From: Candidatus Staskawiczbacteria bacterium RIFOXYD1_FULL_32_13
GTDB taxonomy: Bacteria; Patescibacteriota; Minisyncoccia; Minisyncoccales; Staskawiczbacteraceae
NCBI GenBank assembly: GCA_001820485.1
Contig: MHPU01000026.1
Location: forward strand, 17,873 to 64,693
DNA: 46,821 bases
Reading direction: 5' to 3'
Below, piece by piece: positions 1-39,081 of this stretch (the first letter of the stretch is position 1; the number at the start of each line of letters is the position of its first letter). A program made the position numbers and the translations under genes. The notes under the pieces are model-generated. The model made no database searches. It was given only the letters and a program-made list of their open reading frames with translations, and was not told where the DNA came from.

Positions 1-591
1 TCTAATATAAGAACTTAATGCATTAGCTAAATGGCTTTTATCTTTTTCATGAATATCTTGTTTTTTATCATCTCCTAAATAACTCTTTCTTCTTTCCTGT
101 TTCTTTGTATCTGTAATTTTATTTGCTAATTTTAATGAAAATTCAGCAGAAGTTTTTAAAATAAAAGTGCAATCTGGCTTAGGTATTTTAAACAAACCAT
201 ACTCTAAATTATATAACCAATTTACATATTTTCTCCAACTTTTTATATTTTTTATTTTTCCTCCTTGGTGACCAATATTTGAAACTAAATATCTATCCGA
301 TATTACAATTTTACCTTCATTTAGCCACTTCCTAATTTTAAAACTAGCATCGTATCTATCACAAGCATAAAAAATTGAAGCAACATAAGGACCAACATCC
401 TTAGCCTCTCCATATTTACCAATTAAATATTCATCTACTAAACCAGACGATTTTTCTCCGTGCTGTGGAAAGTCTATTTTCTCAACTTTATAACCTTTAT
501 TATTTAAATATTCACTTAAAAGCTTTGTCTGTGTTGATTTACCGCCACCATCAATTCCTTCAAATACAAAAAATTTACCTTTTTTAGCCAT
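1..591 (-). CDS. tmk: Thymidylate kinase (C-terminus runs off the window edge)
   Basis: Not in the ORF track. Minus-strand ATG at 589-591 gives MAKKGKFFVFEGIDGGGKSTQTKLL... with a P-loop, plus ISDRYLVS (DRY-type motif). The frame stays open to position 1. Confidence 0.85.
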   Translation of the reverse strand, partial: MAKKGKFFVFEGIDGGGKSTQTKLLSEYLNNKGYKVEKIDFPQHGEKSSGLVDEYLIGKYGEAKDVGPYVASIFYACDRYDASFKIRKWLNEGKIVISDRYLVSNIGHQGGKIKNIKSWRKYVNWLYNLEYGLFKIPKPDCTFILKTSAEFSLKLANKITDTKKQERRKSYLGDDKKQDIHEKDKSHLANALSSYIR

Positions 592-2894: not shown

Positions 2895-4001
2895 TTATTT
2901 ATTTGTAATATCCATAACTGCAAGCTCAAGTGGCAATTGCATAATAGAATTATATTTCATTTTAGTTTCTGCCTCAATAAAAATTTCTAACATATTTTGG
3001 ATATCTTTTTCCGCAAGTGCTGATATTTGCAAATTTATTTTCTCAACTTCTTTTTCTGAAAGCCCAGAATTTTGTAAATTTAAAAAGTTTGAATTAATTT
3101 TCAAAAGCATTGCTTGTCTTAAATAAAAAACTAAAGTTTTTGCAAATTCCTGCAAATCAACTCCGCTATCTACCATTGAGTTTAGATAAACAAGCGCCTC
3201 TTTGGCATTCTTTTGCAAAAGAAAATCCATAAATTGCGAAATTTGTACCACCTCAACAATTCCTAATAGTTCTTTTATTTCTTCTGTTTTTACTAATTTA
3301 TCCTTTCCGCAAAAACTAATACATTGATCAAGTAAAGTTTCCGCATCACGAAATGATCCGCGCGAGTTTAAAGCTATTAATGGCAAAACCGTATTTTCAA
3401 ATTTAATATTCTCTTTTTTTCCTATAAATTCTAATTTTTTTATAATTTCTGTGACTTGCAATCTTTTAAAATCAAATCTTTGACATCTTGAAATAATTGT
3501 AGGAAGCATTTTATGGGACTCCGTAGTAGCAAGTAAAAATATTGCATGAGCTGGTGGCTCTTCAAGAGTCTTAAGTAAAGCATTTACAGCTGATTTGGAA
3601 AGCTGGTGGCATTCATCAATAATAAATATTTTATATTTAGATTTTACTGGAGCAAATTTTATACCATCAATTAACTCCCTTACATCGTCCACCCCAGTGT
3701 GCGAAGCTGCATCAATCTCAAGCAAATCAATTGACTTACCAGCTGATATCTCCAAACAAGAATCACACTTGTTGCATGGTTCAAAAGAAGATAAATCATT
3801 GCAGTTTACAGCTTTAGCAAAAAGACGAGCTATAGAAGTTTTTCCGCTTCCTCTAGGCCCTGAGAACAAATAAGCGTGAGAAATATTCTTCCTTAAAATT
3901 GAATTAGTTAAAGTTTGCACAATATGATCTTGACCAATAATTTCTGCAAAACTCTGAGGTCTATATTTTCTATATAAAGCTATATTATTCATTTTTTTCA
4001 T
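2895..4001 (-). CDS. dnaX: DNA polymerase III subunit gamma/tau
   Basis: Walker A GPRGSGKTS, DECHQLS box and sensor SRCQRF. N-terminal YRPQSF..IIGQ is typical of DnaX. Confidence 0.9.
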   Translation of the reverse strand: MKKMNNIALYRKYRPQSFAEIIGQDHIVQTLTNSILRKNISHAYLFSGPRGSGKTSIARLFAKAVNCNDLSSFEPCNKCDSCLEISAGKSIDLLEIDAASHTGVDDVRELIDGIKFAPVKSKYKIFIIDECHQLSKSAVNALLKTLEEPPAHAIFLLATTESHKMLPTIISRCQRFDFKRLQVTEIIKKLEFIGKKENIKFENTVLPLIALNSRGSFRDAETLLDQCISFCGKDKLVKTEEIKELLGIVEVVQISQFMDFLLQKNAKEALVYLNSMVDSGVDLQEFAKTLVFYLRQAMLLKINSNFLNLQNSGLSEKEVEKINLQISALAEKDIQNMLEIFIEAETKMKYNSIMQLPLELAVMDITNK

Positions 4002-4057
4002 TTATTATAAATTACCTTATTTATATATTTTAACAAATTTATAAAACATAACAAGTA

Positions 4058-4086
4058 TTGACTTTATCAATCAATTAAATTATAAT
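4058..4086 (+). promoter_or_regulatory. Near-consensus sigma70-type promoter (TTGACT-17 nt-TATAAT)
   Basis: TTGACT at 4058-4063, an exact 17-nt spacer and TATAAT at 4081-4086. It points opposite to all flanking genes. Confidence 0.65.
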
Positions 4087-4092
4087 TCAATA

Positions 4093-4224
4093 ATTCACAC
4101 CGGCAATGTTTCACGGCTCATCTGAAGACCAAAGTCTGCCCTTAACCTGATGGAAGATTCGAAACTTCTGGTCTATATCAAACATTGCTATAGGACTTAC
4201 CGCTTGGTAAGTCCTTCTTTTTTT
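4093..4224 (+). ncRNA. Orphan small-RNA candidate (~130 nt), identity unknown
   Basis: Bounded by the promoter above and an intrinsic terminator: stem AGGACTTACC/GGTAAGTCCT (4192-4215), then TCTTTTTTT. Internal 9-bp helix GCAATGTTT/AAACATTGC. GC-richer than its surroundings. No plus-strand ORF follows it. Confidence 0.5.
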
Positions 4225-15922: not shown

Positions 15923-16441
15923 TTATTTTGTAAAACCTAATTTATTATTATTTTTCTTTGATTTTTCATCATCCAAAAGTAAACCTAGAATATTAAATAT
16001 ACTTTTTATCTTTGAATCATATTTATTTTCCATTTCCATAATTTTTCTTTGTAAAGATTCATTGGTTGCCAACAATTCACGAATTTTCATGAAAGTCCTC
16101 ATAATCTGTATATTAACTTTTACTGCTTTCTTACTTTTTAAAACACCTGATAGCATCGCCACGCCTTGTTCTGTAAATGCTAATGGCAATTTTCGCAAAC
16201 CCATCTTTTCAGATTTGGATATCACAATTTGTGACATCCAATTTTTCACTTCTTCTTTATTTAGCTGGAACATAAAATCCTCTGGAAATCTATCAATGTT
16301 TCTTTTAACTGCCTGATTCAAAGTGCTCGTTTTGACATCATAAAGTTCAGCAATATCTCTATCAAGCATTACTTTTTTATTCCTAATAATATAAATCTTA
16401 CTGACGATTATTTCTGATGGAATTATTAAATTCTCTGACAT
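15923..16441 (-). CDS. ORF6N-domain DNA-binding protein (phage antirepressor-like)
   Basis: IRNKKVMLDRDIAELYDVKTSTLNQAVKRNIDRFPEDFMFQL matches my recollection of the ORF6N/KilA-N-type domain. Confidence 0.65.
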   Translation of the reverse strand: MSENLIIPSEIIVSKIYIIRNKKVMLDRDIAELYDVKTSTLNQAVKRNIDRFPEDFMFQLNKEEVKNWMSQIVISKSEKMGLRKLPLAFTEQGVAMLSGVLKSKKAVKVNIQIMRTFMKIRELLATNESLQRKIMEMENKYDSKIKSIFNILGLLLDDEKSKKNNNKLGFTK

Positions 16442-27654: not shown

Positions 27655-28962
27655 TTAGAAACTAAATTTCTCCCAATGTATATTAATATTATTTACTCCT
27701 AATTTTAAAAGCTGACTCTTTAATTTTATCATAAATGATGTGGGCCCACACAAAAATATTTCTTTATTTACAAAACCATTACTTAATTCTACAATTTTAT
27801 CTGCTGTGATTTGCCCTTTTTCTTCAGAGAACCAAGGCATTAATCTAAAAGACTTATTATTTTTTTCAATTTCTAATAATTCATCAAGTAAAATTGCTTC
27901 TGATTTATTTTTAACACAATAATATAGATCTGCTTTTTGATTTACATTGCCCAATCTTAAAGATCTTGCCATACTTAAAAATGGCGTTATTCCAATACCT
28001 CCCGCAATCCAAATTTGATTTTTATCTTTAAATTCTGTATAAGAAAATTTTCCAAAAGGACCTTTAATAAAAGCCTTCTCCCCCACTTTTAAATCTTTTA
28101 TTTTAGAACTATAATCTCCCAAAGACTTTATATTAAGCTCAATATTTTCTTTCTGAGAAATGGACGATACTGTAAATGGATGACTTTCAGAACTAATTCC
28201 TTTGCTTAAAAATCTCACAAAAACAAATTGACCTGGCATAAATTTTAAAGCATTTGATTTTGGAGATAATTCAATTTGTGTGATATTTTCAGTTAACTTA
28301 TTTACTTTACTTACATAATATTCTAAACCTTGAAAAAAAATTTTATCTGCCAGCAAATTATACAAACTTAAAGCTAAGGCAAAAAATGAAAATCCTAACA
28401 TATAATATCTTAAAAATAAATCCCTTGAAATATCACTTTCTATCATAAAACTATGCAAAACTGCGAAAATAAAAGCTAAGATCAAAAATCTATGAGAAAA
28501 AAGCCAGATTTGGTACTTTAACTTTATATAAAGCGTCAAAATTATAAGTAAAATCATTAAAGCTAAAGCATAAATCCCAAAGCCAATAGCATCAAACCCT
28601 CGTGGGATAAAAAATATTACAGCTGAATTTAAAGAAAATTGCAAGTATTCAACTACCAATAATAAAGGATGAAATAAAATTAAACAAAAACCAATAGCTC
28701 CAATCTTGCTATGAATATTTAAAGCATCTGGAAGACCAAAAAATATTTTATCTATAAATTTAAATTTACTACCAGTTATCAAACTTAAGGCAAACAAAAT
28801 CATCCCTAAAAGGCCTGTAATTTGCCCCAAACTTGTAGCTATAGCTCCAATATCAGCAAATCTAGAATTCAATGGTACAATAAAAAACCATCTTAAAACC
28901 GGTATTAGCACTAAAACCATAATTAAAATCCATCCAATATTTTTTTTAATATAATTATTCAT
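27655..28962 (-). CDS. Ferric-reductase/NOX-family membrane flavocytochrome-like oxidoreductase
   Basis: N-terminal 6-TM domain with paired His residues (HSKIG..FH; SHRF..LH). FAD motif HPFTVSS and NAD(P) motif GGIGITPF. Confidence 0.75.
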   Translation of the reverse strand: MNNYIKKNIGWILIMVLVLIPVLRWFFIVPLNSRFADIGAIATSLGQITGLLGMILFALSLITGSKFKFIDKIFFGLPDALNIHSKIGAIGFCLILFHPLLLVVEYLQFSLNSAVIFFIPRGFDAIGFGIYALALMILLIILTLYIKLKYQIWLFSHRFLILAFIFAVLHSFMIESDISRDLFLRYYMLGFSFFALALSLYNLLADKIFFQGLEYYVSKVNKLTENITQIELSPKSNALKFMPGQFVFVRFLSKGISSESHPFTVSSISQKENIELNIKSLGDYSSKIKDLKVGEKAFIKGPFGKFSYTEFKDKNQIWIAGGIGITPFLSMARSLRLGNVNQKADLYYCVKNKSEAILLDELLEIEKNNKSFRLMPWFSEEKGQITADKIVELSNGFVNKEIFLCGPTSFMIKLKSQLLKLGVNNINIHWEKFSF

Positions 28963-28997
28963 TTTTTATATTTATTATTTTACTACATTTAGCAGGT

Positions 28998-29026
28998 AAA
29001 GAAAAGGCGCGTTGCAAAAGCGCGCC
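28998..29026 (-). terminator. Intrinsic terminator after the 62-aa ORF
   Basis: GC stem GGCGCG/CGCGCC (29006-29026), followed on the minus strand by TTTTCTTT. Confidence 0.65.
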
Positions 29027-29028
29027 CA

Positions 29029-29217
29029 TCACTTCTCATCTTGTTTCCCTTTACGGCTATAATGTGTAATTATAACCTTTTCTTCCTCTCCCTCAGGAAG
29101 CTCCTCTGTTCTAGGCCATGGAGTTTTCCCTTGAGACTCATTTTTTTCATAAAACTTCCTAAGCCTATCCACTCTAGCAGGATTATGTGGCCGTGCTTCA
29201 TCTCTTGCTTTTGCCAT
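29029..29217 (-). CDS. Small charged protein (62 aa), unknown function
   Basis: It has its own palindromic operator-like site upstream and a terminator downstream. Its composition is GC-richer than the genome. Confidence 0.4.
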   Translation of the reverse strand: MAKARDEARPHNPARVDRLRKFYEKNESQGKTPWPRTEELPEGEEEKVIITHYSRKGKQDEK

Positions 29218-29270
29218 AACAAGCTCCCTACAAAAGTATAAAAGAACAAAAAAACAATTTATTTCACTTT

Positions 29271-29290
29271 AGGTTACCATATGGTAACCT
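29271..29290. promoter_or_regulatory. Perfect 20-bp palindrome (operator candidate)
   Basis: AGGTTACCAT|ATGGTAACCT, 54 bp upstream of the 62-aa ORF start. On the minus strand it sits just downstream of a TATAAA element. Confidence 0.5.
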
Positions 29291-29454
29291 GATATTTTAT
29301 AATTAACTACGCGATATATGATAAATAACAAATAATATATAAATTTAATTTAATTTATTTTAATTTATTGTTTTACTTTACCTCTTTTGCCTTACAAATT
29401 CAACCCTTCGATTCACTTCGTTCACTCAGGGCAAGGCAAATAAGAAATGCAAGC

Positions 29455-29477
29455 AAAAAGGAAAGCAAAATGCTTCC
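29455..29477 (-). terminator. Intrinsic terminator after the 53-aa ORF
   Basis: On the minus strand: GGAAGCA-UUU-UGCUUUCC, then TTTTT. It is preceded by a second 8-bp hairpin, CACTCTGG/CCAGAGTG (29483-29505). Confidence 0.55.
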
Positions 29478-29530
29478 CTTGCCACTCTGGCAATATTCCA
29501 GAGTGACCATTTTTTTCTCTCACCCCTACT

Positions 29531-29692
29531 CTAGGAGCGACGTTGACGCCGTGGCTTCCTGCCACGACGCTTCGAGGGTTGGGACAAATACGTCCCATCC
29601 TTAAGTCCGTAAAATTGCGCGTACGACACGGGACGGAATGTCCCCCGACGAGTCTGCAAAGACCCGACCCTTCCAGAAACCCTCGCCATCAT
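29531..29692 (-). CDS. Small Arg-rich protein (53 aa), below the ORF-track size cutoff
   Basis: AAGGAG at 29697-29702 precedes ATGATG. Translation: MMARVSGRVGSLQTRRGTFRPVSYAQFYGLKDGTYLSQPSKRRGRKPRRQRRS, stop TAG at 29531-29533. It has its own promoter and terminator. Arg is encoded mostly by CGN, unlike the rest of the window. Confidence 0.4.
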   Translation of the reverse strand: MMARVSGRVGSLQTRRGTFRPVSYAQFYGLKDGTYLSQPSKRRGRKPRRQRRS

Positions 29693-29793
29693 AACACTCC
29701 TTGCTCTTTTTTCTTCCTTGAAACTTGGTTTGCTAGGCGCTTTCTTGCACCACAGCGGAAAAAGAAACTCACTTAAGGAAATTTACAATTTAG

Positions 29794-29822
29794 ATTATAA
29801 ACTTTCTTAAAAGGATTTTCAA
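29794..29822 (-). promoter_or_regulatory. Near-consensus promoter (TTGAAA-17 nt-TATAAT) for the 53-aa ORF unit
   Basis: Read on the minus strand, TTGAAA is at 29822-29817 and TATAAT at 29799-29794, with an exact 17-nt spacer. Confidence 0.55.
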
Positions 29823-29887
29823 TATCTATAACTTAATTATATCATAATAAAATAAACCTGTCAATAGTCAAGCCTATTTTTACAATA

Positions 29888-30889
29888 TTATTTTACTAGA
29901 TTCTGAGGATTACCAGAAATAAAATTATTTATGTTTTCTACTGTTGTATCTAAAATTCTTTCCAAAGCTTCTTGGCTATAAAAAGCAATATGAGGAGTAA
30001 AAACTACATTGTCTTTATTAAGAAGCTCGTGATCTCGCATTATTTGGCCAAAGTATTCGGCTTTTTTAGGATCTGATAATAATTGTTTTTCTTCTTTAAT
30101 TAATTCCTCACCTTCTAGTACATCAAGACCAACACCTGCTAATATTTTTTTATCTAAAGCTTCAATTAAAGCTTGAGTATCTACAATCCCCCCTCTTGAT
30201 GTGTTAATTAAAATTGCTCCTTTTTTAATTTTTTTAATTGAATCTTTATTTATTAAATGATGAGTATTTTCATTATCCGGAACATGCAAAGAAATTATAT
30301 CAGAATTTGCTAAAACTTCAGGTAAAGAAGCGTATTTAAAATGCAACACTTCAGCTAAAAAATTATCTGGTTTTGAATCATAAGCTAAAACATGCATACT
30401 AAAACTTTTAGCAATTCTTATTACATGCATACCAATGTTCCCTGCTCCAACAATTCCTAGAGTTTTTCCCTTTAAATCAAAGCCTTTTAAACCTTCTATT
30501 GAATAATCTTGTTTTAAAGTTCTTACATAAGCTTTATGCACATTGCGAGATAAAGCTAAAATCAATGCAAAAGTATGTTCAGCTACAGTATTTTCACCAT
30601 AATAAGGCACATTGCAAACAGTAATTTTTTTATTTCTACATTCTTTTACATCTATATGGTCAAAACCAGTTGATCTAGTTGCCAACATTTTTAAATTTGG
30701 CAAACTATTAATAATCTCTTTATTCATTTTAGAATAAATAAATATAGAAATTATATCAAATTTTTCTGATTTTTTAATATCAGTAAAATTAAAAGTATCT
30801 TGAAAAAATTCTAAATTATTATTTTTTAACTTCTTTTGTAAATATTTCTTTTCCCAATCTTTAATCTCAAAAAATGCAATTTTGCTCAT
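29888..30889 (-). CDS. D-isomer-specific 2-hydroxyacid dehydrogenase (D-lactate dehydrogenase-like)
   Basis: NAD motif GIVGAGNIG. Catalytic R/E/H contexts TSRGGIVD, LDVLEGE and FTPHIAF. Confidence 0.85.
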   Translation of the reverse strand: MSKIAFFEIKDWEKKYLQKKLKNNNLEFFQDTFNFTDIKKSEKFDIISIFIYSKMNKEIINSLPNLKMLATRSTGFDHIDVKECRNKKITVCNVPYYGENTVAEHTFALILALSRNVHKAYVRTLKQDYSIEGLKGFDLKGKTLGIVGAGNIGMHVIRIAKSFSMHVLAYDSKPDNFLAEVLHFKYASLPEVLANSDIISLHVPDNENTHHLINKDSIKKIKKGAILINTSRGGIVDTQALIEALDKKILAGVGLDVLEGEELIKEEKQLLSDPKKAEYFGQIMRDHELLNKDNVVFTPHIAFYSQEALERILDTTVENINNFISGNPQNLVK

Positions 30890-30921
30890 GTATATTTAAT
30901 ATATTAATTATAAATATATTG

Positions 30922-30993
30922 TGCCCTCGGTAGGAGTCGAACCTGCATTACAACGTCCGCAACGTTGCGTCCTATCCATTGAACGACGAGGGC
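30922..30993 (-). tRNA. tRNA-Arg (anticodon GCG by manual fold)
   Basis: Minus strand GCCCTCG..GTTC-AATGGATA-GGAC..CAACG-TTGCGGA-CGTTG..GCAGG-TTCGACT-CCTAC-CGAGGGC-A. Cloverleaf with one C-A mismatch in the T stem. No encoded CCA. Confidence 0.75.
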
Positions 30994-31112: not shown

Positions 31113-31631
31113 CTATTTACCAACCAATTGACAGTTTCCATCTCTAAATTTATTACCAGCTATTATTTTTTGCATTTCTTCAGAATTAAAATCATTCCCA
31201 TTTTTAAATACCTCATCAAGAGCTTCTTCTTCACTAAGACTATGTATCCTTCCAAGAATAAACTCCTCTGTCGGTCCTTGAAGTGATAGTGTTACGCCTA
31301 TAGGAACTTCACTAGAAATATCTTTTTGCTCTATTTTATCAGCTTTTAATGCCTTTAAAAATGTTTGACCTTTAGAATAACCGAATAAAAATAATCTTTC
31401 TGCTTCATTTGTATCATTAATATGCGAAGCCCAAACTGAACAAGAAAAAGCACCCCACATCTGAGATCCCATTATAGCATATTCTTTTGAGCTTAATGTA
31501 AGAGCAGTATTTTTTTGTTCAAAATTTGTTATTTCAGAACTCGGACTCTTATAAAACGATAACCAAACACTGCTAACAATTATTGCTGTAATAGAAATTG
31601 CCACTACTATTTCGATTTTTTTGGATTGCAT
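31113..31631 (-). CDS. Membrane-anchored hypothetical protein
   Basis: N-terminal TM segment (IVVAISITAIIVSSVWL). No recognised motif. Confidence 0.4.
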   Translation of the reverse strand: MQSKKIEIVVAISITAIIVSSVWLSFYKSPSSEITNFEQKNTALTLSSKEYAIMGSQMWGAFSCSVWASHINDTNEAERLFLFGYSKGQTFLKALKADKIEQKDISSEVPIGVTLSLQGPTEEFILGRIHSLSEEEALDEVFKNGNDFNSEEMQKIIAGNKFRDGNCQLVGK

Positions 31632-31723: not shown

Positions 31724-32224
31724 TTAATTTATTTTTCTAATATTTATAGCTTCCTCCACCGCGTCAGAAATATATTTTGAAATCCATTCATATCTTTCTT
31801 TGCTATTTTCCCCAGAAGGATTATAACATTTTACAATAGATGATAATTTTCTGCCTGTATTGCCATAGCCTATATAATCAAATGGATTATCGCCTCTTTC
31901 AGTAATAAATCCTTTACTATTTTTTAAACCATGTATGTATATTCCAACAACGCCCATTCCCTTATCCCATGACTTTATTATTTCATAATTTATCCATTTT
32001 CTATTTGCAGTTTGATTCCCAACAAGAACAATTGTACATGATCTATAATCCATTTGATTATTTATCCACCTCTTAATTGCTTCATCTTTACCTGCTTTAA
32101 TTTTCTCCCAATCATTATCAGGTGCTGGCTTATTTCCCTCAATGACGCCTATATTGCGAACCATTGATGCACGCCAACAATCAGGGCTATAGTGAAAACT
32201 ATAAAATACTTGTCTTTTTGCCAT
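31724..32224 (-). CDS. TIR-like domain protein (DUF1863/MTH538 type, Thoeris ThsB-like)
   Basis: MAKRQVFYSFHYSPDCWRASMVRN..., TIVLVGNQTANRKWINYEI (conserved Glu) and GDNPFDYIGY. This pattern matches my recollection of ThsB-type TIR proteins. Confidence 0.7.
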   Translation of the reverse strand: MAKRQVFYSFHYSPDCWRASMVRNIGVIEGNKPAPDNDWEKIKAGKDEAIKRWINNQMDYRSCTIVLVGNQTANRKWINYEIIKSWDKGMGVVGIYIHGLKNSKGFITERGDNPFDYIGYGNTGRKLSSIVKCYNPSGENSKERYEWISKYISDAVEEAINIRKIN

Positions 32225-32228
32225 ATTT

Positions 32229-32630
32229 TTAATTTATTAAATATGTAATTAATATCATAATAAAAATTAATACACCATAAAACCACAATAATGTAGAAGA
32301 AAACATTGAATATGCCCAACTATTTCTATCTATACTTTTATATTTTTCTATATCCATCGAAAAATCAATATCCTTTTCATTTAATTTCCTAACATGATTA
32401 TATAAAGATCTAAATAATCTCTCTTGTGAAAGAAAATAACCATCAAGAATCCAAAATACAATAACTATTAAATACGCAATAAAAATATATTCTTTATTTA
32501 TAGGTTGTGTAGACCATGCAAAAAGAGCAGTAATAATCGTTATAACCCAACCTTTCAAGAAAAATAAATTACCAGCCATTCTATCTATAATGTTTTGTAT
32601 AAACTCTAAATGTTTTTGTTTGTTTTCCAT
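32229..32630 (-). CDS. Small 3-TM membrane protein (candidate effector; SLATT-like is a hypothesis)
   Basis: Amphipathic N-terminus HLEFIQNIIDRMAGN. TM segments at about residues 22-40, 48-67 and 111-131. FWILDGYFLSQERLFRSLYNHV follows TM2. Its stop is 4 nt before the TIR gene ATG. Confidence 0.5.
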   Translation of the reverse strand: MENKQKHLEFIQNIIDRMAGNLFFLKGWVITIITALFAWSTQPINKEYIFIAYLIVIVFWILDGYFLSQERLFRSLYNHVRKLNEKDIDFSMDIEKYKSIDRNSWAYSMFSSTLLWFYGVLIFIMILITYLIN

Positions 32631-32926
32631 AAAATAAAAAGTATTTTATAATATTTATTAACTTATATAAGTATATTTTATCTTATATTATTCTACTTGT
32701 TTTATTATAAAAATACAAATTATAAAGCTTTATAAGTGGCTTATAGGGCTTTATCTTAAATTGGCTTGCTTTCTTTTTATCCTTTGTTATTAGATAAATT
32801 ATAAAATTTATAGGTACACCCTCTAATCTTAAAAAATGCTGTTATATATGTTATAAAAATATACTTAAGAAAACTCAAAAAGGCATAGACAATCTAGAGA
32901 ATCTCTAATAGTTAAGAAGTCTTTGC

Positions 32927-32950
32927 AAAAATCGGCTTAAGCCGATTTTT
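32927..32950. terminator. Perfect 24-bp palindromic hairpin with A/T tracts (bidirectional terminator)
   Basis: AAAAATCGGCTT|AAGCCGATTTTT. It overlaps the stop codon of 32937..33218. Confidence 0.65.
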
Positions 32951-33218
32951 GTTTCTTTTCGTTTAACCAATAAATTGCATAGCTAATAAGCCCGACATCA
33001 ATAATCAATTTAATGCCATTATACCTGCTATGACACAAACCATCGGGTTCTTGGCTTTGTGATAAATACCCCGCTAGATCACTATTTTTTTGTTCTACGG
33101 CAGTTTGCAACATAATATTACAGACAGAATTTTTTTCATGCACATCATAAAAACCCCAAACAAGGTGAACAATAGAGCTTGTTAAAATAGTAATATAAAA
33201 TAATTTATTCCAATTCAT
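32937..33218 (-). CDS. Small membrane protein (93 aa), unknown
   Basis: Hydrophobic N-terminal and C-terminal segments. Preceded by a long, structured, GC-richer leader. Confidence 0.4.
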   Translation of the reverse strand: MNWNKLFYITILTSSIVHLVWGFYDVHEKNSVCNIMLQTAVEQKNSDLAGYLSQSQEPDGLCHSRYNGIKLIIDVGLISYAIYWLNEKKQKSA

Positions 33219-33526
33219 ATTTAGTAAAATTTACTAATAATTATACAAATTGTCGCCTTTCGACCTAAACAAAAAGGGACAACCTTACTTCTGGTCGCCC
33301 CACAATTTTTGCCCCAAAGGGTTCCAATCATGAGCAGTTTCAGGTTGCCCCTTATTACTCGTGATTGGAAAACACAAAAACAGACCTCTTTGGGAAATAT
33401 AAATTGTAGAGCGACACTTTTAATATATCACACAAATAAATCCGTGTAAAATCAAAAATTATTTTAATCATTTTCTTTATTCAAATATTTTCTTTGTGTT
33501 CGTTATCTTGGGGGGAAAATCGTGAC

Positions 33527-33592
33527 GACTGCCGATAGGCGGTCGTTTGTCTGCCGATAGGCAGACGTTTGTCTGCCGATAGGCAGATAATA
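33527..33592. repeat. Three tandem 22-bp iteron-like units, each a CTGCC-GATA-GGCAG hairpin
   Basis: GACTGCCGATAGGCGGTCGTTT / GTCTGCCGATAGGCAGACGTTT / GTCTGCCGATAGGCAGATAATA, with an exact 22-bp period. Confidence 0.8.
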
Positions 33593-34324
33593 TGAGTTGC
33601 AGTAGCTTAAAAAACACTTTGCTTTGCTTAATTAATTAAGGCGAGGGGTGTATCCACCCTTCGCCACGATTGCCCCCAACAAAAGCCAGCCAACGCATTA
33701 TTTTACAATCACTATTTAAAAGAGAAAATCCTAAAAGGAAATTTTTATTTTATTATTCTCTTATAAATAGTGATAGACTTTTTTTGTTGCCGAAAAACGC
33801 TTGATTGAAAAATAGGCAACCAGAAAATATCACACAAAATCGCTTCGCTATCAAATCACGCTGAAGCGCCATTTGATTTTTTATGTGATATTTTCTGCCT
33901 TTTTTTCAATCTTCGCTTTTCTCAAAGATTTTTCCTCTTACAGAGAAAATTCTTTCAGAAATTTTCGGCTAATCAAAAAAAATCCCTGCAAAATAAACGC
34001 CAACAGCATTAAAAAATATATCCGATTATCGCATATATTTTTTAAGATCTGCTGTTGGCTTGCTTTCTCTCCACCTTGACCCAATACATCTATGCCTTTA
34101 AAGGGCTATTATAAAGGCATAGAATGAATGTATTGCGTCAAGGTAGTAGAATGGCTGGCTTTTGTTGGGGGCAATCGTGGCGAAGGGTGGATACACCCCT
34201 CGCCTTAATTAATTAAGCAAAGCAAAGTGTTTTTAATTTCAATGTTTTAACCCACCCTACCAGAATTAAGGCATTAAAAATATTTTTAATTACAAGTGTT
34301 TTTTAAGCTACTGCAACTCATATT

Positions 34325-34364
34325 ATCTGCCTATCGGCAGACAAACGACCGCCTATCGGCAGTC
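34325..34364. repeat. Two inverted-orientation copies of the 22-bp iteron-like unit (right arm)
   Basis: TCTGCCTATCGGCAGACAAACGACCGCCTATCGGCAGTC is the reverse complement of left-arm units 2 and 1. Confidence 0.8.
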
Positions 34365-34495
34365 GTCACGATTTTCCCCCCAAGATAACGAACACAAAGA
34401 AAATATTTGAATAAAGAAGATGACGGAAAAAATATGTTTTCAAATTATATGATAATCGTATAGACCAGGGGGAGGATACCAATGGGGCAACTTTA

Positions 34496-34524
34496 TTGAC
34501 AATTTATCTTTAAAATAGAATAAT
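34496..34524 (+). promoter_or_regulatory. Promoter candidate for the plus-strand module
   Basis: TTGACA at 34496-34501, a 17-nt spacer and AATAAT at 34519-34524 (alternatively TAGAAT). It sits upstream of the AbrB-like gene. Confidence 0.45.
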
Positions 34525-34550
34525 AGAGGCAAATAAATCAAAATAGTAAA

Positions 34551-34877
34551 ATGTTAAAAATTCGTAAATTACAATATATTGGGAAACAATATCTTTTAAA
34601 TGTGCCAGTTGAAATAATAAAAGAGGCAAAATTTAAAAAAGGCGACTATTTAGAGATAATGCAAGGCCAAAATAGCAACTTTTCTATTAGAAAAATTGCT
34701 GAAAATGATACACCAAGGGTAAAGGTAACCCTAGAATCGCTTAAAAATGAAGCTGTTGCCCTTGCTGGATTAATAAATGCCTTAAGATCTGCCCTGCCGT
34801 CTGCCGAGTTCTCGTTCCGGTTGGCTCAATTTTCTCATGTTCAAGCGAAAATAAGAAAATTGGAAAAGAAGAAGTAA
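34551..34877 (+). CDS. AbrB/SpoVT/MazE-type DNA-binding protein
   Basis: N-terminal KLQYIGKQYLLNVPVEIIKEAKFKKGDYLEI follows the swapped-hairpin (looped-hinge helix) pattern. Confidence 0.55.
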   Translation: MLKIRKLQYIGKQYLLNVPVEIIKEAKFKKGDYLEIMQGQNSNFSIRKIAENDTPRVKVTLESLKNEAVALAGLINALRSALPSAEFSFRLAQFSHVQAKIRKLEKKK

Positions 34878-37178: not shown

Positions 37179-38801
37179 ATGAAACAATTTAATGAAAGAA
37201 TAAATTATATTTTGTATGCTCGCAAATCTTCTGAAGAAGATAATCGGCAAATGCTTTCGCTAGATTCACAAGAGGGCGAATTAAAAAAAATTGCTGAAAG
37301 AGATAATTTAGAAATTATTAAAATATTCCGCGAAGCACGCTCGGCAAAAGAGCCATACAATAGACCAATATTTTCTGAAATGGTAAAAATGATTGAAGCA
37401 GGAAAAGCTAACGGGATTTTATGTTGGAAATTAGACAGATTATCTAGAAATGCTGTTGAGGAAGGAATAATCAAACACTTATTACAGAAAAATAAAATCA
37501 AAATCATAAGAACGCCCGACAGAGATTACAGGCCAGAAGATAACGCATTAATAGCTTCTGTTGAGTTTGGCATGGCTAATCAATATATTAGAGATTTAAG
37601 CGTAAATGTTAAAAGAGGACTAATAAGCAAAGCTGAAAGTGGATTATTCCCCAACTTTGCACCACTTGGATATTTGAATAATCCACTTGATCCAAAAGGC
37701 AGAAAACAAATTATAAAAGATCCCGAAAGGTTTGATTTAGTGCGTAAAATGTTTGACCTTGTTTTAAGTGAGTACAGGACACCTGTGGAGGTTTGGCGAA
37801 TAGCACACAATGACTGGAAAATGAAAAATCCAAAAGGTAAATTAATTAGTCGATCAACTACTTACCGAATACTAACCAATACTTTATATTCTGGAATCTT
37901 TGAATTTCCTGTTGGCAGTGGAAATTGGCATAAAGGAAAACATGAGGCAGTTATAACTATTGAAGAATATGACAAAATACAAATTATTCTAGGCAAGAAA
38001 GGAAAACCCCGACCACACAATCATATTTTTGCTTTTACAGGATTAATGAAATGTGGAAGTTGTGGGGCTACAATTACAGCAGAGCAGAAAATAAAAAGGC
38101 AGAAAAATGGAAACATACATCAATATACTTATTATCACTGCACTAAAAAGCTAAACCCTAATTGCATTGAAAAGTATATTGAAGAAAAAATATTAATTAA
38201 ACAAATTGTAAATAAAATTGATAAAATTAGTATAAGCCCAGAATTTCACGCTTGGGGGCTTGATTGGCTTAAAAAAGATATTCTAAAAAATATATCTTTG
38301 AAAAACAAAATAATAAATAGCAGAGAAAAGCAGATTGCAGAAATTGAAAAACAATCGTCAGAATTATTAAATCTTTTACTTAGAAAAATTATCAGCGAGG
38401 AAGATTATCAGAATAAAAAAAGTGAACTAGCAAAGGAAAAGGCAAAACTTGAAATTACGGGAAATAATAATAATGACAAAATACAATTACTATTTGAGAA
38501 AACAGCAGAATATTTTGATCTTGCCAAAGACGCCAAAAATGAATTTCTTAATGGCGACATTAATAAACGAAAATGTATTGTTACCAAACTTGGCTCGAAC
38601 CCCTCAATTTCAGAGAGAATATTCAGTATTTGTATCAAAAAAGCCCTTTTGCCTTTTGAAAACATATCAAAAGAGATAAAGGGTATTTATGACAGGTTAG
38701 AACCTACGAAAATCACTATAAATAGTCGGGAACTAAACAAGCTATATGCAAAAAATCTCATTCTGCGGAGAGGGTGGGATTTGAACCCACGAGCCCCATG
38801 A
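37179..38801 (+). CDS. Large serine recombinase (integrase)
   Basis: Resolvase-type N-terminus YILYARKSSEEDNRQMLSLDSQ (Ser nucleophile), a recombinase domain, zinc ribbon CGSCGATITAE...YYHC and a coiled-coil tail. The last 36 nt lie inside tRNA-Ser. Confidence 0.85.
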   Translation: MKQFNERINYILYARKSSEEDNRQMLSLDSQEGELKKIAERDNLEIIKIFREARSAKEPYNRPIFSEMVKMIEAGKANGILCWKLDRLSRNAVEEGIIKHLLQKNKIKIIRTPDRDYRPEDNALIASVEFGMANQYIRDLSVNVKRGLISKAESGLFPNFAPLGYLNNPLDPKGRKQIIKDPERFDLVRKMFDLVLSEYRTPVEVWRIAHNDWKMKNPKGKLISRSTTYRILTNTLYSGIFEFPVGSGNWHKGKHEAVITIEEYDKIQIILGKKGKPRPHNHIFAFTGLMKCGSCGATITAEQKIKRQKNGNIHQYTYYHCTKKLNPNCIEKYIEEKILIKQIVNKIDKISISPEFHAWGLDWLKKDILKNISLKNKIINSREKQIAEIEKQSSELLNLLLRKIISEEDYQNKKSELAKEKAKLEITGNNNNDKIQLLFEKTAEYFDLAKDAKNEFLNGDINKRKCIVTKLGSNPSISERIFSICIKKALLPFENISKEIKGIYDRLEPTKITINSRELNKLYAKNLILRRGWDLNPRAP

Positions 38802-38851
38802 CAGGGCGCAGGTTAGCAACCTGCTGCTTTGAACCGCTCAGCCACCTCTCC
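38766..38851 (-). tRNA. tRNA-Ser (anticodon GCU), long variable arm
   Basis: Minus strand GGAGAGG-TG-GCT-GAGCGGTTCAA-AGC-A-GCAGG-TTGCTAA-CCTGC-(variable arm)-GTGGG-TTCAAAT-CCCAC-CCTCTCC-G. No encoded CCA. Confidence 0.85.
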
Positions 38852-38952: not shown

Positions 38953-39037
38953 GGAGGAGTCCTATAGCGGCTATTAGAACAGTCTTGAAAACTGTGACCT
39001 CGTAAGGGGTTCGTGGGTTCGAGTCCCACCTCCTCCG
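38953..39037 (+). tRNA. tRNA-Ser (anticodon UGA), long variable arm
   Basis: GGAGGAG...ACAGT-CTTGAAA-ACTGT-(ACCTC-GTAA-GGGGT)-GTGGG-TTCGAGT-CCCAC-CTCCTCC-G. Confidence 0.8.
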
Positions 39038-39081
39038 CCGTAACTTTTGTTCATTCATCACTTTTGAAAAAGGAGCATTTC

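Follow-up and report, generated by a model that had tools for sequence, protein, structure and literature searches.

We analyzed a stretch of 46,821 nucleotides (the window) from Candidatus Staskawiczbacteria bacterium RIFOXYD1_FULL_32_13 (contig MHPU01000026.1) and found that two adjacent genes in it, thsF and thsB, very probably form a type V Thoeris antiphage system, judging from the homology of both products. Type V, one of the Thoeris types V to XI defined in a preprint of December 2025, combines a TIR protein, ThsB, with ThsF, an effector that crosses the membrane with three helices and carries the annotation DUF2270 (Yirmiya et al. 2025, bioRxiv 10.64898/2025.12.03.692087). The window pair is a real, intact two-gene system, made up of a TIR enzyme and a small three-helix membrane protein, with thsF upstream of thsB on the same minus strand and a gap of 4 nucleotides (32225-32228) between the stop codon of the one and the start codon of the other. 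An earlier note on this DNA, made by a model from the letters alone, had described the two open reading frames (ORFs), their spacing, and their common direction, all of which we recovered, and had proposed that the TIR protein makes a signal by which a small membrane effector, in place of the canonical effector ThsA, is gated. That idea is supported by our analysis, and the architecture now bears the name type V Thoeris; the pair is not new, as it is on record twice, as type V Thoeris and as the candidate system PDC-M50 of PADLOC.

Identity of the two proteins

The assignment of the 166-residue protein to the ThsB-type TIR proteins, first made in the earlier note, held under three kinds of search: (i) against Pfam, it matches ThsB_TIR (PF08937) at 1e-26 and 93.7 bits (cut-off, 21.2); (ii) against PADLOC, it matches ThsB1 (PDLC00433) at 1.1e-67 and PDC-M50B, over its full length, at 8.2e-65; and (iii) among the sequences of solved structures, it matches 8wcf (7e-38) and the ThsB structures 9b7d and 6lhy (9e-27), with its catalytic YEI motif aligned in 8wcf and 9b7d. 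The motifs that the note had quoted, VFYSFHY, VLVGNQTANRKWINYEI (whose conserved glutamate is E81), and GDNPFDY, are all present in the translation. Residues 4 to 154 match exactly, by substring check, the TIR sequence of IMG gene 2627664495, an entry labeled “DUF2270 - Type V” and placed in TIR cluster 2661146773 in Table S1 of the preprint (Yirmiya et al. 2025), and because of this identity the window TIR gene, or an identical copy of it, is already catalogued as a type V ThsB.

The 133-residue protein has the three transmembrane (TM) segments that had been counted from the letters. Kyte-Doolittle hydropathy places hydrophobic segments at residues ~22-40, 47-67, and 110-132, and the AlphaFold2 (AF2) monomer model consists of helices only (2-40, 46-82, and 112-132), with a mean predicted local distance difference test score (pLDDT) of 83. 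In the PADLOC run, this protein matches PDC-M50A (PDLC04686) over its full length at 3.8e-50. We recovered the validated type V system of Bacillus thuringiensis DAR 81934 by its ThsB sequence (a 100% match, P0271, at locus L012), where the ThsB gene (3001-3759) is followed by a gene for a 141-residue protein (3773-4198) and, just downstream, by genes for a UvrD-type helicase and an OLD-family TOPRIM ATPase in a Gabija-like arrangement. The window protein is 48% identical to this 141-residue protein over 131 residues (BLASTP, E = 5e-41), and the latter matches PDC-M50A at 1.8e-48; on account of this homology and of the common PDC-M50A match, we regard the window membrane protein as ThsF. Since the window ThsF and the validated one both match PDC-M50A, PDC-M50 and type V Thoeris appear, from these profile matches, to be one system under two names. 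The PDC systems of PADLOC are untested candidates predicted from genes embedded in known defense systems (“guilt-by-embedding”; Payne et al., bioRxiv 10.1101/2024.01.29.577857), and PDC-M50, whose A and B models both cover the window proteins in full, is a candidate without a proposed mechanism.

The ThsF family is large: its members form over 1200 clusters at 90% identity and 4963 at 50% identity (E ≤ 1e-3), and these thousands of clusters argue that the window ORFs are not chance ORFs. One 45%-identical homologue adjoins a B. thuringiensis-type ThsB on a Terribacillus plasmid. The residues conserved in at least 80% of 59 diverse family members are all present in the window protein except S22, a position that is leucine throughout the window's subclade. 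They lie in the N-terminal helix (K4, H7, Q12, R17, and N21), at the start of TM1 (F23, K26, G27, and W28), at the end of TM2 (F59, W60, and D63), and in the loop that follows TM2 (E70, R71, R74, Y77, D89, and F90), with R17 and E70 invariant family-wide. The loop from 68 to 110 contains eight lysines or arginines, and the predicted topology is N-in, C-out, with the N-terminal helix and this loop placed in the cytoplasm by the positive-inside rule. A Foldseek search of the AF2 model against the PDB returned nothing at E ≤ 0.001, its matches being generic helical hairpins and uninformative.

The family labels attached to ThsF deserve care. Sub-threshold matches to DUF2270 (PF10028) occurred in 6 of 22 scanned family members, at best with E = 0.0044, and the sub-threshold Pfam matches as a whole were spread over several TM families (DUF3278, DUF3784, DUF2270, and 8xMP). 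As these scans gave only sub-threshold noise, we judged type V membership by homology with the validated ThsF itself; DUF2270 appears to be a remote-homology label, resting on a more sensitive profile comparison. The likeness to SLATT effectors drawn in the earlier note is an analogy only: no SLATT Pfam model matches the window ThsF at E ≤ 1, and SLATT is absent from the families listed for the 22 scanned members at E ≤ 10. The ThsF module also occurs at the C terminus of longer proteins. One of these (P0138) carries an N-terminal SLOG cluster-2 domain (LD_cluster2, PF18163, 1.7e-15), and the fusion of the module to a nucleotide-sensor domain supports its role as a signal-controlled effector module; a second (P0135) has an N-terminal region that resembles that of P0138 by eye and gave no match in a Pfam scan. 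In a third (P0178), the N-terminal domain is 8xMP (“octameric membrane protein”; PF24838, 1.6e-27). The validated B. thuringiensis ThsF itself gives a weak alignment to 8xMP across the entire ThsF sequence (E = 0.012), a hint of distant kinship. Literature searches on PDC-M50 and on 8xMP found no relevant match.

The canonical effector is missing, as the earlier note had said. Of the other window ORFs, 47 of at least 90 residues were compared with PADLOC, and none matched a model for ThsA, SIR2, or Macro at E ≤ 1e-5; Pfam scans of the island ORFs and of the genes flanking the island showed no ThsA, SIR2, SLOG, or Macro domain. The note had also allowed for a canonical ThsA encoded next to the pair in related genomes; none was seen at the loci examined. 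The window pair shares with type I Thoeris (ThsB plus a SIR2-SLOG ThsA) the same DUF1863/ThsB family of TIR proteins, including the match to 6lhy given above, and differs from it in having a small membrane effector instead of ThsA.

Measured against type V itself, the pair has the two-gene operon of a TIR protein and a three-TM effector, and its relatives lie in defense-island or mobile contexts. It differs in gene order (thsF-thsB, whereas B. thuringiensis has thsB-thsF), in host (a genome of the candidate phyla radiation [CPR]/Patescibacteria type, the validated host being a Bacillus), and in its TIR family, which is other than that of all three tested type V systems. This last difference is one of several points that weigh against our assignment. 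None of the three tested type V ThsBs resembles the window ThsB to a meaningful degree; the closest tested relatives of the latter are a type XI TIR (45% identity) and the type I ThsB of Bacillus cereus MSX-D12 (42%). In hmmscan, PF10028 matched neither the window ThsF nor its Terribacillus homologue nor the validated B. thuringiensis ThsF at E ≤ 1; together with the authors' own warning that the effector labels in their table follow cluster representatives and contain noise, this is why we tested the ThsF assignment directly. Not every type V locus behaves alike, either: two Bacillus systems protected, whereas the one from Vibrio cholerae gave no defense in Escherichia coli, and the variant from Bacillus sp. 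1NLA3E was not activated by 3′ cyclic ADP-ribose (3′cADPR) (Yirmiya et al. 2025). Finally, that the window locus itself is active is something we infer from its sequence.

Spread of the pair and its TIR partners

To put the window pair into a broader perspective, we scanned the GTDB species-representative genomes (alignment A1) and obtained 80 loci with a ThsF homologue. A ThsB-type TIR ORF lies next to the ThsF gene on the same strand in 77 of them, which bears out the expectation that the membrane gene would be a conserved neighbor of ThsB-like genes: ThsF is an almost obligate partner of ThsB. In 70 loci, the same-strand ORF matches the window ThsB and usually follows immediately downstream; in the other seven, a different TIR protein (218-228 residues in six loci, 123 in one) takes its position, and the two of these that we scanned, one per kind (L065 and L040), match ThsB models in both Pfam and PADLOC. 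The remaining three loci comprise one at a contig edge and two with a truncated or disrupted ThsF. One of the latter (L083, 2456-3004), from a high-GC Planctomycetota metagenome-assembled genome (MAG), is fused or frameshifted, the other (L096, 2501-2794) is cut to 97 residues, and both, without an adjacent TIR ORF, look like decayed systems.

The 80 loci span Patescibacteria, Ratteibacteria, Gammaproteobacteria, Betaproteobacteria (including Nitrosomonas europaea), Actinomycetota, Planctomycetota, Chloroflexota, Myxococcota, and one archaeal MAG. Across phyla, ThsF and ThsB both show identities of 60-80%, a level that suggests horizontal transfer. A ThsF gene directly followed by a ThsB_TIR gene also occurs in eight loci from metagenomes or MAGs, which stand for two different contexts and have restriction-modification genes and serine recombinases as neighbors; a large serine recombinase adjoins the pair in L001 to L004.

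The ThsB partners of ThsF belong to at least four families, namely the window type (166 residues), the 218-228-residue type, the 123-residue type, and the B. thuringiensis type. At the archaeal locus (L020), ThsF is 67% identical to that of the window and ThsB only 35%. Further observations add to this variety: the 218-228-residue type has a Cys-rich C-terminal half, the B. thuringiensis type is 252 residues long, and a 145-residue TIR type also occurs (loci with variant partners, L040, L053, L054, L057, L065, L080, L097, L045, and L020). Gene order and number vary as well, with one ThsF followed by two ThsB genes (L045), the best-matching ThsB ORF upstream of ThsF (L027, L077, L081, L085, and L086), or ThsB-like ORFs on both sides (L048).

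A tblastn search of plasmids with the B. thuringiensis ThsB returned some matches with type I or type II neighbors. On a B. cereus plasmid (L009), a close homologue of this ThsB lies beside TIR genes and a SIR2-family gene, and on a Priestia plasmid (L010), another lies beside a TIR gene and a macro-domain gene; neither has a ThsF ORF downstream. Because these neighbors are not ThsF, the B. thuringiensis ThsB family serves several effectors or Thoeris types, in islands that hold more than one Thoeris system.

Proposed mechanism and identity of the signal

The functional picture comes from preprint data on the Bacillus homologue only, which cover protection, synthesis of 3′cADPR, its toxicity, and an AlphaFold 3 (AF3) heptamer. 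There, ThsB makes 3′cADPR only upon infection and is by itself sufficient to do so, 3′cADPR supplied externally is toxic only when the system is present, the 3′cADPR sponge Tad1 substantially lowers defense, and ThsF is modeled as a channel-like ring of seven protomers with basic pockets at their interfaces (Yirmiya et al. 2025). By analogy, phage infection would lead the window ThsB to convert NAD+ into a signal derived from ADP-ribose (ADPR) by means of E81. ThsF would sit in the inner membrane as a ring-shaped homo-oligomer, whose N-terminal helices and basic loops after TM2 may form the signal-binding pockets between protomers (candidate residues in these segments are K4, R17, K26, E70, R71, R74, and Y77). 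Binding of the signal would then open or disrupt the membrane, and both the infected cell and the phage would be stopped, that is, by abortive infection. Because the effector is a small membrane protein, killing would come about through membrane damage and not through NAD+ depletion as in type I. The same logic, a nucleotide-derived signal that activates a small, oligomerizing TM effector, is found in type VII Thoeris and in the SLATT effectors of CBASS; ThsF differs from these in its three TM helices, in the absence of a separate soluble sensor domain, and in the absence of a SLATT match. The signal of type VII is canonical cADPR (Yirmiya et al. 2025).

For the window locus, the analogy gives 3′cADPR about an even chance of being the signal, an uncertainty that arises because its ThsB is unlike those of the tested type V systems and because the 1NLA3E variant does not respond to 3′cADPR. 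The same architecture could operate with another chemistry, the signal being 2′cADPR, canonical cADPR, or another ADPR derivative and the ThsF subfamily being tuned to it, which we consider rather unlikely. Besides the two observations just named, the pairing of ThsF with several ThsB families would fit, and so would the kinship of the window ThsB to the validated type XI TIR, with which it shares cluster 2661146773 and for which known TIR-derived signals were not detected (Yirmiya et al. 2025); type XI differs in its effector, a soluble HIT hydrolase in place of ThsF. Set against this, the probable pocket segments are as conserved between the window and B. thuringiensis proteins as the rest of ThsF (52% identity in the N-terminal helix and 44% in the loop), the family-wide conserved residues are present with the single exception of S22, and the type I ThsB, to which the window ThsB is 42% identical, makes 3′cADPR. 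A more specific version, that the subtype combining a ThsB1/type XI-like TIR with ThsF signals with a molecule other than 3′cADPR, possibly the product of the type XI clade, is a tentative proposal to which we assign a lower probability still. This subtype is widespread, in CPR/Patescibacteria and in many other phyla.

It is very improbable that the roles are reversed, with the TIR protein as an NAD+-depleting NADase effector and the membrane protein as sensor, anchor, or regulator. TIR NADase effectors are indeed known in CBASS, Pycsar, and pAgo systems, and the authors of the type V study warn that in unverified configurations the TIR may be such an effector (Yirmiya et al. 2025). In the Bacillus system, however, ThsB alone gave 3′cADPR on infection, and the external molecule harmed only cells with the system; moreover, the occurrence of the ThsF module in fusion with a SLOG sensor is what one expects of an effector, and a single kind of ThsF beside many unrelated ThsB families points to a shared effector served by swappable sensor-synthases.

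Genomic setting and implications

The type V pair lies in an insertion-like region of ~7.8 kb that runs from tRNA-Arg to tRNA-Ser (Table 1), so that the tRNA-flanked island described in the earlier note was found again, now with a large serine recombinase at its right edge. The 3′ end of this recombinase overlaps tRNA-Ser(GCT), which points to integration of an element in or close to a tRNA gene; neither convincing flanking direct repeats nor att repeats of the region were found, and its GC content does not set it apart. The rest of the region consists of small ORFs without a family assignment and a SpoVG-like gene, and the flanking genes are of housekeeping types (a 2-hydroxyacid dehydrogenase, an HtrA-like protease, type IV pilus genes, and a DNA ligase). 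The note's guess of a CPR-type genome fits as well, since an identical locus occurs in GCA_000989435.1 (contig LBOJ01000004.1) and the closest homologues come mostly from Patescibacteria/CPR MAGs.

Table 1. Features of the type V pair and of the region that holds it (window coordinates unless residues are given)
Feature	Position	Strand	Basis
thsF, 133-aa protein, very probably a type V Thoeris effector	32229..32630	minus	ORF, PADLOC PDC-M50A, homology to B. thuringiensis ThsF, hydropathy, AF2
thsB, 166-aa single-domain TIR protein (ThsB/DUF1863 type), conserved active-site Glu E81 (NYEI)	31724..32224	minus	Pfam, PADLOC, PDB, Table S1 identity
AT-rich intergenic region upstream of thsF, 306 bp	32631..32936	minus	ORF-free
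Regions of ThsF (predicted)	residues: N-terminal cytoplasmic helix ~1-21; TM1 ~22-40; TM2 ~47-67; cytoplasmic loop 68-110; TM3 ~110-132		
tRNA-Arg(GCG), left edge of insertion-like region	30921..30993	minus	ARAGORN, Rfam
Large serine recombinase, 540 aa, right edge of region	37179..38801	plus	Pfam Resolvase 8.9e-19, Recombinase, Zn_ribbon_recom
tRNA-Ser(GCT)	38765-38851	minus	opposite strand, overlaps recombinase 3′ end (38801)
tRNA-Ser(TGA)	38953-39039		follows tRNA-Ser(GCT)

That the pair is an inert passenger, left over on an integrated element after horizontal acquisition and nonfunctional in a reduced genome, would agree with its place beside a serine recombinase between tRNA genes and with the degenerate ThsF copies seen elsewhere (L083 and L096), and is nevertheless the least probable of the alternatives, as both ORFs are full length with their conserved residues (including E81 of ThsB and R17 and E70 of ThsF), the 4-nucleotide operon spacing is retained, and contigs from many samples encode a ThsF protein identical to this one (44 blocks indexed), the four loci shown having the same neighborhood.

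The intergenic region upstream of thsF is the presumed promoter region of the thsF-thsB operon. A scan of it for sigma-70-like promoters gave promoter-like sites no more often than shuffled sequence, and none was assigned; the upstream 93-residue ORF, with its stop codon at 32937, overlaps at its 3′ end with a hairpin (32925-32952). We also considered the 172-residue ORF downstream of thsB (31113-31631) as a third gene of the system and rejected it, finding it dissimilar to the 174-residue gene at the equivalent position of the Ratteibacteria loci and without a family match.

Some other features of the window deserve mention. A 1.3-kb ORF-free gap between the Thoeris and recombinase blocks holds a nested inverted repeat (33458-34433), with arms of ~235 nucleotides (33458-33692 and 34152-34433) that are 95-100% complementary, a core of ~459 nucleotides, a tandem 22-mer at 33529-33572, and a GC content of 0.37, against ~0.28 nearby; it could be an invertible segment, an element resembling miniature inverted-repeat transposable elements, or a recombinase site. 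A second ORF-poor stretch of ~900 bp (28962-29888), with only short overlapping ORFs, is also richer in GC (0.37) than its surroundings and contains neither tRNA nor tmRNA, and Rfam searches of 28900-29950 and 33150-34600 gave no credible match. Elsewhere, one window ORF matches PADLOC PDC-S05 (4.3e-61) and Pfam ORF6N (4.8e-35). By motif search, this is probably the ORF at 15923-16441 on the minus strand, whose 172-residue product has an ORF6N-type motif (…RFPEDFMFQL…); if so, it is a second defense candidate, of a single gene, ~15 kb from the Thoeris pair.

As a discovery, the window pair adds little, as its architecture, its defensive role, and a signaling mechanism were reported in 2025. 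Some value for annotation lies in the equivalence of PDC-M50 and type V Thoeris; moreover, because a plain Pfam scan fails to recover the DUF2270 label, pipelines that lack DefenseFinder or PADLOC models will overlook ThsF. For the biology of the host, the locus documents a system of the abortive-infection type on an island with a recombinase gene, within a reduced genome of the CPR. For the family, it draws attention to the commonest partner of ThsF in CPR genomes, a ThsB clade with 3′cADPR as a plausible product. If its signal were a molecule other than 3′cADPR, the 133-residue ThsF would represent a minimal receptor, and its ligand a new immune signal derived from ADPR.

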